Shown here one piece after another: positions 54,040-55,018 of a DNA stretch of 64,000 nucleotides (positions are counted from its first letter, which is position 1; every line of letters starts with the position of its first letter). Source of the stretch: Minisyncoccota bacterium (lineage in GTDB: Bacteria; Patescibacteriota; Minisyncoccia; UBA6257; 2-01-FULL-56-20); the NCBI GenBank assembly GCA_036266715.1, contig DATAXS010000006.1, positions 1,757 through 65,756 of the forward strand. The letters run 5' to 3'. The translations under genes were made by a program, and so were the position numbers. Below the pieces are notes generated by a model. That model did not search any database. It saw nothing but the letters and a program-made list of their open reading frames with translations, and was not told the origin of the DNA.

Positions 54040-54073
54040 AATTTTATATTTTCCCTCACTGGAATAAAGAAAT

Positions 54074-54101
54074 GGCGCGATTGACTGAAATCAATTGCGC
54101 C
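54074..54101. terminator. hairpin between convergent genes 53509..54039 (+) and 54119..54310 (-)
   Basis: GGCGCGATTGA-CTGAAA-TCAATTGCGCC (11-bp stem with one mismatch). Confidence 0.45.
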
Positions 54102-54118
54102 ATCGAAAGTTGTTTGGT

Positions 54119-54310
54119 TTAAGCTGTTGCGTGCTTCGATTTTTTATGTTGGATTTTAGTTTTGCGCACGCTTACTTTTGGAGGTTGTCGTGTATCGAGA
54201 TCGGGATCGATTCGCCTGAGAAGGTTTAAAATTTCCTCAGGACTGGCATTTTTGAGTCGTTCATCGCTCCGATGGAGAGCCTCTCTAATTTCTTTTCCCC
54301 TGATAGGCAT
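54119..54310 (-). CDS. small basic protein, translationally coupled partner of the ART-fold protein
   Basis: 63 aa. Its ATG overlaps the upstream stop (TAATG at 54312-54308). Helical N-terminal half and Lys-rich tail 'VRKTKIQHKKSKHATA'. Confidence 0.45.
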   Translation of the reverse strand: MPIRGKEIREALHRSDERLKNASPEEILNLLRRIDPDLDTRQPPKVSVRKTKIQHKKSKHATA

Positions 54311-54894
54311 TACTGTTTCCCTCCTTCAAAATGGTAAAGCTGAATGCTTTTTATTACTTCCGTGCGATAAGGACGCACGACTATCTGAACATGGGCATGG
54401 CTATAAAGCTGTGAACCGGGAACGATTGGCTTGCCTTCGATGAAGGTAGCTCGGACGGCGCTGACTCGTCTCCCTTCTGCTTCCAGTTGATCCACCACGG
54501 AGTTAATCAGCACACAATCAAAGTCGTGTTTTCCACCTTTGTTTAATGGTAACGACTTCCCAGCTTTTTGGTATCGTTCTTCTAGCACCACATATCGCCG
54601 CGCAATTATTTCTGCCGCCTCGATGTCAATAAGGTCAAGACAATCGTTGAGGTCTATCTCAGCGCAGAGTACTACGGGGTTTTCGGTACGCACAGGAGGC
54701 GAAATGCGAACTTTCGGCCACTCTCGGGCGCGAAAAGGTGCGTCTTGAAAGAAATACACGCCCCTTCCCAGCCAGTCAGTGTCTTTTTCGCTGAATAGAA
54801 ATCTTTCGGCGTTTTTCTCGCCGGGCTCCAGGATTGCTGTTGCCGATTCCTCGCTTGTACCATGATAGCCTAAAACCGTTAGGGTTTGATCCAT
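54310..54894 (-). CDS. ADP-ribosyltransferase-fold (PARP / DUF3990-like) protein
   Basis: 'VLGYHGTSEESATAIL' (H-G-T), 'DWLGRGVYFFQDAPFRAREW' (G-x-G-x-Y-F), late strand 'HVQIVV'. RBS AGGGAGGG (54909-54902). TGTATAAT (54946-54939) upstream. Family assigned from motif memory only. Confidence 0.5.
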   Translation of the reverse strand: MDQTLTVLGYHGTSEESATAILEPGEKNAERFLFSEKDTDWLGRGVYFFQDAPFRAREWPKVRISPPVRTENPVVLCAEIDLNDCLDLIDIEAAEIIARRYVVLEERYQKAGKSLPLNKGGKHDFDCVLINSVVDQLEAEGRRVSAVRATFIEGKPIVPGSQLYSHAHVQIVVRPYRTEVIKSIQLYHFEGGKQ

Positions 54895-55006
54895 TGGATG
54901 GCCCTCCCTGATTGTTTAAATTTTCAAGTTCTGTTAAAATTATACAATAATTTTTGGTTAAATCAAGTAGAAGAGAATCAAAGCCCGTTTCTTGAAAGCG
55001 GTATTG

Positions 55007-55012
55007 TACAAT
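55007..55012 (+). promoter_or_regulatory. -10 element placed for a leaderless tktC mRNA
   Basis: TG-TACAAT (55005-55012) ends 6 nt before ATG 55019, and no Shine-Dalgarno sequence is present. Confidence 0.35.
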
Positions 55013-55018
55013 ATATAG

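Follow-up and report, generated by a model that had tools for sequence, protein, structure and literature searches.

Within a stretch of 64,000 nucleotides, in the following referred to as the window, we have analysed a low-GC insert (54040-55018) which lies between the two genes of a split transketolase and which probably constitutes a horizontally acquired, self-contained two-gene cassette of the toxin-antitoxin type, composed of an ADP-ribosyltransferase (ART) of the CmdT family and a chaperone-independent partner. The insert, reaching from the stop codon of a membrane-protein gene to the start codon of tktC, holds the whole cassette on the minus strand: the gene of the putative toxin, a cytoplasmic CmdT-family ART of 194 amino acids (54310-54894), is followed by that of a putative antitoxin of 63 amino acids (54119-54310), the stop codon of the former overlapping the start codon of the latter in the sequence TAATG (54312-54308). 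Seven nucleotides ahead of the ATG of the ART gene a Shine-Dalgarno sequence AGGGAGGG can be read from the sequence (54902-54909, minus strand), and GGAGG is present 9 nt ahead of the partner start. An earlier examination of the bare letters, henceforth called the sequence-only reading, had already described this ribosome-binding site as well as two coupled minus-strand genes in a gap of about 1.5 kb between the transketolase halves; the open reading frames (ORFs), the overlap and the gap, which measures 1525 bp from tktN to tktC, are all borne out.

PD-T4-9, also known as CmdTAC, is an E. coli toxin-antitoxin-chaperone anti-phage system whose toxin CmdT belongs to the H-Y-[E,D,Q] ARTs; it attaches ADP-ribose to mRNA, at N6 of the adenine within GA dinucleotides, blocks translation and aborts T4 infection (PMC9519451, PMC11618068, 10.1101/2024.02.24.581848). 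Such modification of mRNA and such defence are known for the E. coli systems only. Searched on its own against Pfam (E≤1), the 194-residue window protein matches solely PARP with an E-value of 0.2. PADLOC assigns it to PD-T4-9_A (3.1e-5) and PHROGs to family 14664 of unknown function (8e-20); a phmmer search against PDB sequences gave no match. A profile search over 1.84 billion representatives reveals a family with 2993 members at E≤1e-3, a number which falls to 1287 at E≤1e-10; almost all of them comprise 170-230 amino acids. PD-T4-9_A is matched by 99 of 124 aligned representatives, Pfam PARP by 53, Exotox-A_cataly by 10 and Tox-ART-HYD1 by one. Alignment by hhalign of the subfamily which includes the window protein with ARTs adjoining SecB/CmdC-like genes extends over 171 columns (99.8%, E 1.2e-27), and the PD-T4-9_A score of the window ART falls within the range (4e-7 to 2e-4) of those ARTs which share an operon with a PD-T4-9_C/SecB-like gene. 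By sequence comparison, the 194-residue protein is an ART of the CmdT family with intact catalytic motifs; the statement of the sequence-only reading that the module could not be assigned to any described system has thus to be revised.

The protein carries the features of the ART fold and, within it, of the H-Y-[E/D/Q] clade which comprises diphtheria toxin, exotoxin A and PARP. This fold had been proposed from the motifs alone and finds support in the family profile, which aligns GYHGT and GxGxYF with the segments 'GYHGT' and 'GFYI' of the exotoxin A catalytic domain (E 5e-4), segments which we take to represent His440 and Tyr470 in standard exotoxin A numbering. H11 (within YHGTS) and Y47 (within GRGVYFF) are at least 90% conserved among the 124 representatives. 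The same degree of conservation is reached by Q170 in the strand HVQIVV, which comes to lie on the conserved Q, the only conserved polar residue, of the corresponding CmdT-type strand (QLCV/QICV). As judged from these alignments, the NAD site is probably built around the triad H11-Y47-Q170, in keeping with the earlier suggestion that HVQIVV supplies the third residue, and W59 would provide the second aromatic of the site. In 15 close homologues YHGTS, DWLGxGxYFFQDAP, FxEG and H168 are invariant. The AF2 model of the ART has a pLDDT of 81 and a pTM of 0.79. The mention of DUF3990 in the sequence-only reading is not supported: neither this family nor DarT (DUF4433), RES or Tpt1, which were considered as well, yields a Pfam match at E≤1 for the 194-residue protein.

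For the 63-residue partner, scans of Pfam, NCBIfam, PHROGs and PADLOC returned no match. Its single-sequence AF2 model predicts two helices (residues 5-21 and 24-34, pLDDT >90) followed by a disordered tail (residues 37-63, pLDDT ~50), the 27 residues of which are rich in Lys and Arg and bear a net charge of +6; the model thereby agrees with the small helical protein with Lys-rich tail anticipated by the sequence-only reading. In an alignment of five partner sequences A22, E25, E26, L31 and P36 are invariant. The tail is Lys/Arg-rich with a net charge between +3 and +10 across the five, a basic tail being specific to the window's subfamily. Comparison of the partner family by hhalign with the partners encoded downstream of the nearest ART relatives (class III, described below) results in an alignment of 38 columns which covers both helices (P 1.3e-4) and gives moderate support to the homology of the two groups. 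A motif 'S.EE...L.R', by eye common to the partner families, is without statistical support and was discarded. In CmdTAC, the antitoxin CmdA consists of two N-terminal helices and an unstructured C-terminal region, and it is required for folding and accumulation of CmdT (PMC11618068).

The 194-residue protein is identical to HEX4104046.1 from a metagenome-assembled genome (MAG) of Candidatus Paceibacterota. A second copy of the cassette resides on another contig of the same MAG (L001:5001-5770, HEX4104120.1, VHZ04_01415), where it is located between a glutamine synthetase gene and infC; it shares 70% identity with the window in the ART and 44% in the partner. Altogether, close homologues of the cassette occur in five unrelated neighbourhoods, and the partner is conserved and coupled to the ART in at least five genomes. 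ART and partner genes overlap by 1 or 4 nt in L001/2, L003 and L004/5, an ORF of 61-70 amino acids being present downstream of the ART, and in L006-8 the partner ORF follows the ART after a short gap. The start/stop overlap is kept in four genomes. As far as can be judged from the arrangement of the genes, which are adjacent, coupled, paired and mobile, the cassette displays the generic layout of a type II toxin-antitoxin system. In the lineage of L006 (L006:5001-5800, also L007 and L008; three NCBI assemblies) the ART gene suffers a frameshift within a (CA) repeat CACACACACAC directly ahead of the catalytic strand HVQVVV and continues in a different frame from there on, while its partner ORF has remained intact. 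This is the pattern of decay expected of a toxin gene and provides indirect support for the assignment; the frameshift could reflect such decay, phase variation through strand slippage or an error common to the three assemblies.

The cassette has been inserted recently by horizontal acquisition, as its composition and its absence from 80 related loci demonstrate. With 44.7%, the GC content of 54040-55018 is the lowest among all segments of 979 nt within the 64 kb (mean 55.2%, sd 2.8), and the GC content at third codon positions (GC3) amounts to 0.47 in the ART gene and 0.36 in the partner gene compared to 0.73-0.74 in tktN, the membrane-protein gene and tktC. The sequence-only reading had inferred horizontal acquisition from GC values counted by hand, three from lines of the insert and one from a typical coding line, which we were able to reproduce (38.3%, 43.3%, 26.7% instead of the 28% given, and 58.3%). 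Our synteny comparison is based on a scan with TktC which led to the 80 related loci, mostly from Patescibacteria. Tblastn with the 194- and the 63-residue protein gave no match in any of them. The order rpiB-rpe-tktN-membrane protein-tktC-kinase is kept in the nearest loci, whose TktC is 80-84% identical, homologues of the membrane protein with 46-67% identity occupying the same position. The membrane-protein gene is therefore ancestral and does not belong to the insert. Where only this gene separates the tkt halves, the distance between its stop codon and the tktC start is 2-35 bp, in contrast to 979 bp in the window; in relatives which are further removed, tktN and tktC adjoin each other with 3-13 bp between them. 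The cassette is oriented opposite to the operon, and the flanks of the 979-bp insert contain no direct or inverted repeats, tRNA, integrase or phage genes. In four of five hosts the GC content of the cassette is 3-10 points below that of its surroundings.

A toxin-antitoxin or anti-phage function, as put forward by the sequence-only reading, is suggested by the homology to CmdT/PD-T4-9_A together with the conserved coupled partner. With respect to toxicity, neutralisation, RNA target and a role in defence, we infer the following sequence of events. The two-helix module of the partner would bind and neutralise the enzyme and, by analogy with the action of CmdA on CmdT, perhaps aid its folding, and the disordered tail would render the partner short-lived or titratable. 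As soon as the supply of partner drops, be it that a phage induces shut-off, that proteolysis sets in or that the cassette is lost, the enzyme would be freed and would spend NAD+ on ADP-ribosylating nucleic acid, most likely RNA, whereupon the cell would be arrested. The outcome would be addiction and/or abortive infection. Since a SecB-like chaperone is missing, sensing would have to differ from that of CmdTAC.

Several observations weigh against this explanation. The PD-T4-9_A match of the window ART is weak and confined to the N-terminal 75 residues, and its identity to the chaperone-linked CmdT-type ARTs is as low as ~23-29% (~23% in the profile-profile alignment). The wider clade of the window ART conserves E153, located in the strand preceding Q170, whereas the chaperone-linked CmdT-type ARTs do not; within the former it may represent an alternative third catalytic residue, and the target may therefore differ from that of CmdT. 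For the partner, the hhalign link to the class III partners has a moderate probability of 53%, and profile comparisons with CmdA-like proteins as well as with the upstream partners of a sister clade are not significant. The neighbours of the window cassette are housekeeping genes and do not form a defence island. Finally, because CmdA is also needed for the folding of CmdT, a partner which does no more than help the enzyme to fold or activate it has to be taken into account.

In the latter case no toxin-antitoxin pair would be present at all, the small protein being an obligate folding or activating subunit, or else a substrate, of a non-lethal regulatory ART. Besides the dependence of CmdT on CmdA for folding and accumulation (PMC11618068), the location of the cassette amid metabolic genes and the basic tail, which could serve as a target of modification or tether the protein to nucleic acid, would be in line with such a role. 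Yet the cassette is mobile among unrelated genomic contexts and compositionally foreign, it is duplicated in one MAG, one lineage combines a frameshifted enzyme with an intact partner, and relatives are found in prophage or viral contigs and in chaperone-linked defence operons. Since mobility, foreign composition, duplication, frameshift and viral relatives all point to a selfish or defence module rather than to a housekeeping regulator, we consider this alternative unlikely.

Little weight, in our view, has to be given to the assumption that the enzyme is a toxin which destroys NAD+, as an NADase or as an NAD+ phosphorylase in the manner of the RES-domain protein MbcT, instead of transferring ADP-ribose to RNA, the partner still being its antitoxin. 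The window protein lacks a Pfam RES match at E≤1, its conserved residues are H-Y-Q in HG[ST] and GxGxYF contexts and not R-E-S, and it is homologous over its full length to CmdT-type ARTs, the characterised members of which transfer ADP-ribose to mRNA. Improbable, too, is the reading of the cassette as the remnant of a phage or prophage 'moron' whose ART serves the phage in host take-over or counter-defence, for which the phage ARTs Alt, ModA and ModB of T4 provide the model. The match to PHROG 14664 (8e-20), 148 relatives on IMG/VR viral contigs and structural matches in BFVD to phage ART-like proteins are compatible with this origin. Against it, the 979-bp insert is not accompanied by phage genes, an integrase, a tRNA attachment site or repeats, GenBank phages yield only four weak partial matches, and the promoter-like site, ribosome-binding site and hairpin of its own as well as the coupled, conserved partner are those of an autonomous module; moreover, defence genes borne by prophages are common. 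That the cassette is ancestral and owes its low GC content to local composition or gene-specific constraint is effectively excluded, for although homologues in other hosts have a GC content of 48-52%, which is 3-6 points under the flanks and, in L004, not under them at all, the cassette is absent from all of the 80 related loci, even where TktC is 80-84% identical, the insert-free junction measures 2-35 bp, GC3 is 0.36-0.47 versus 0.73 in the neighbours and the orientation is opposite to that of the operon.

The interpretation as an acquired toxin-antitoxin-type cassette can be viewed against the architectures in which related ARTs occur. Among 80 viral-contig relatives, 26 are followed downstream by an ORF of 70-100 amino acids and then by a SecB/CmdC-like gene, the latter being recognised by PD-T4-9_C (down to 1e-19) and by Pfam SecB. 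In a second arrangement (class II; 37 viral or prophage loci within L089-L134) a partner of 54-100 amino acids is encoded upstream of the ART, to which it is translationally coupled; this partner shows the motif S..A..FL.RAGI...G.L..Y, often has a basic N-terminal region and found no match in any library scanned. The third arrangement (class III; ~34 metagenomic loci) comprises the nearest metagenomic relatives of the window ART (~40% identity) and features a small, coupled downstream partner with two helices and the motif MLDPKKAAKLIRQHFEELTTEQFxxNLxxxCPE, whose tail is acidic or neutral in contrast to the basic tail of the window's subfamily. Neither to CmdA-like proteins nor to the upstream partners of class II do these downstream partners show significant similarity. 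In nine class III loci (L182, L189, L196, L197, L204, L207, L212, L216, L217) the two-helix module forms the N-terminus of a protein of ~340 amino acids which includes a nucleoside-2-deoxyribosyltransferase-like domain (Pfam in 5 of 9, PDB 7m5h 2e-5) and, in seven of the nine, an Xre-type helix-turn-helix (HTH). Type II antitoxins characteristically carry an HTH, and the fusion protein is possibly an enzymatic or nucleotide-sensing antitoxin. In a further locus (L195:527-1042) the two-helix module is fused to a TIR domain. The literature searched contains no description of the ~340-residue fusion or of the class II and III architectures.

On this basis a more far-reaching proposal can be formulated, which we regard as speculative and rather doubtful. 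It assumes a superfamily of CmdT-like RNA-targeting ARTs (~3000 representatives at 50% identity) under the control of at least three unrelated modules of which only the version with a SecB chaperone has been studied, the window harbouring a minimal, chaperone-free version, here in a bacterium of the candidate phyla radiation (CPR), in which the 63-residue partner would be inhibitor and sensor at once. Phage nucleic acid might, for example, titrate its basic tail, or a protease might cleave it off. The fusions of the two-helix module to the deoxyribosyltransferase-like domain plus HTH, or to TIR, hint at enzymatic reversal of the modification or at nucleotide sensing.

The genes which flank the insert are tktN, encoding the N-terminal transketolase subunit (52634-53494, plus strand; Pfam Transketolase_N 4.9e-58), and tktC, encoding the pyrimidine-binding and C-terminal subunit (55019-56008, plus strand; Transket_pyr 2.7e-41, Transketolase_C 5.8e-30). 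The membrane-protein gene between tktN and the insert, a hydrophobic ORF of 176 amino acids (53509-54039, plus strand), belongs to the context and lies outside the cassette. Upstream of the ART gene a sigma-70-like promoter candidate, TTGATT-16-TATAAT (54966-54939, minus strand), agrees with the consensus in 10 of 12 positions and contains TGTATAAT, which the sequence-only reading had picked out as the -10 element of the module. While this element does lie inside a promoter-like site, such matches are not enriched (two found versus 1.9 expected in shuffled sequence), so that the candidate is backed by its position alone. The proposed hairpin terminator fared similarly. Between the convergent ends of the membrane-protein and partner genes RNAfold indeed predicts a hairpin (54071-54104, -18.4 kcal/mol, z -3.78) which is followed by the U-rich run UUUCUUUAUU and is likely to act as a shared, bidirectional terminator; a simple terminator scan, however, did not call it.

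The insert parts tktC from its former operon. As insert and hairpin sever tktC from the upstream genes, the acquired AT-rich DNA may now provide the tktC promoter. A plus-strand promoter-like site, TTTTCA-16-TACAAT (9 of 12 positions; 54921-54948), points to tktC from within a spacer of 31.5% GC. The space between tktN and tktC is variable elsewhere, too, where it codes for membrane proteins with DUF5671 or for secreted proteins resembling PsbP_2. In about one third of the nearest relatives (L012, L018, L020, L023-L026, L040, L056) an extra plus-strand gene of host-like GC content, coding for a secreted or single-transmembrane protein of ~225 amino acids with a weak PsbP_2-like match, is present between the membrane-protein gene and tktC. 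Genes have repeatedly been gained and lost in the slot between these two. In L019, another genome of the Patescibacteria, the tktN-tktC gap (4.3 kb) encodes membrane or secreted proteins of the DUF5671 and PsbP_2-like types and, in addition, contains a HicB-sized ORF of 124 amino acids followed by the gene of a HicA toxin (L019:3207-3838; Pfam 5e-11 for HicA), which is an independent case of a toxin-antitoxin system in the same operon gap. The patch of second-lowest GC content in the window (39400-39850, ~46-47% over 979 nt) holds a hydrophobic ORF of 69 amino acids (39625-39834, minus strand) as well as non-coding DNA and is located just past the gene (36792-39425) of a secreted repeat protein of 877 amino acids in which long poly-Gly tracts occur. 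Rfam yields a single match across the 64 kb, a tRNA (42996-43067, minus strand) which does not adjoin the cassette.

To our knowledge, no enzyme other than CmdT has yet been shown to block translation via ADP-ribosylation of mRNA, and CmdT itself has been studied only together with its SecB-like sensor. If our interpretation is correct, a compact two-gene relative would demonstrate that this warhead can be controlled without a chaperone and, with 194 plus 63 amino acids, would offer a very small system for studying how such toxins are restrained and released. The Patescibacteria, for which, given their reduced genomes, we know of few recognised defence or addiction modules, would thereby gain a further candidate. 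Independently thereof, the locus illustrates that an accessory cassette can land within an essential pentose-phosphate operon. The existence of several antitoxin architectures per toxin family is in itself unsurprising; concrete leads are provided by the minimal pair, by its occurrence in a CPR bacterium and by the fusions seen in the sister architecture.

Compared to CmdTAC, the window effector is, on the evidence of homology, an H-Y-[E/D/Q] ART of similar size (~180-200 amino acids), the toxin gene comes first with a small partner downstream, and the partner is predicted to consist of two N-terminal helices and an unstructured C-terminus as CmdA does. Both modules are mobile, CmdTAC being carried on a P2-like prophage. 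In contrast to CmdTAC, which is defined by a SecB-like CmdC within two genes of CmdT, no such gene occurs in the 64-kb window, nor does one accompany the homologues of the cassette: the CmdC profile run on six-frame ORFs of the window reaches a best E-value of 8 and finds nothing in L001-L008, which cover ~10 kb around four homologues. As a control, the same profile detects CmdC in the 26 viral loci mentioned above. Further differences concern the partner, which comprises 63 amino acids as opposed to ~70-100 in the antitoxin ORFs inferred for chaperone-linked loci, whose tail is strongly basic and whose C-termini are HATA (as in the window), RANA or RSHK and not the LAA degron which ends the long chaperone-addiction tail of CmdA, as well as E153, conserved in the window's clade and not in CmdT-type ARTs. 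The published CmdTAC census demanded that no more than two genes separate CmdT from CmdC, and relatives without a chaperone were therefore left uncounted; our own survey suggests that such counts miss most of the family. Our literature search, the coverage of which was incomplete, found no description of chaperone-less CmdT-like pairs and none of ART toxin-antitoxin modules in Patescibacteria.

From the RES-Xre, MbcTA and ParST systems the window ART differs in that it has neither the RES motif nor a Pfam RES match. In these systems the antitoxin is usually encoded upstream and contains an Xre HTH or COG5642 domain, and the toxin degrades NAD+ or ADP-ribosylates Prs. With DarTG the cassette would share the principle of a nucleic-acid-acting ART toxin within a two-gene defence toxin-antitoxin pair. 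Taken together, the enzyme belongs to the already known CmdT family, whereas the new part would be its occurrence in a two-gene system which manages without a chaperone and whose partner shows no significant relationship to CmdA.

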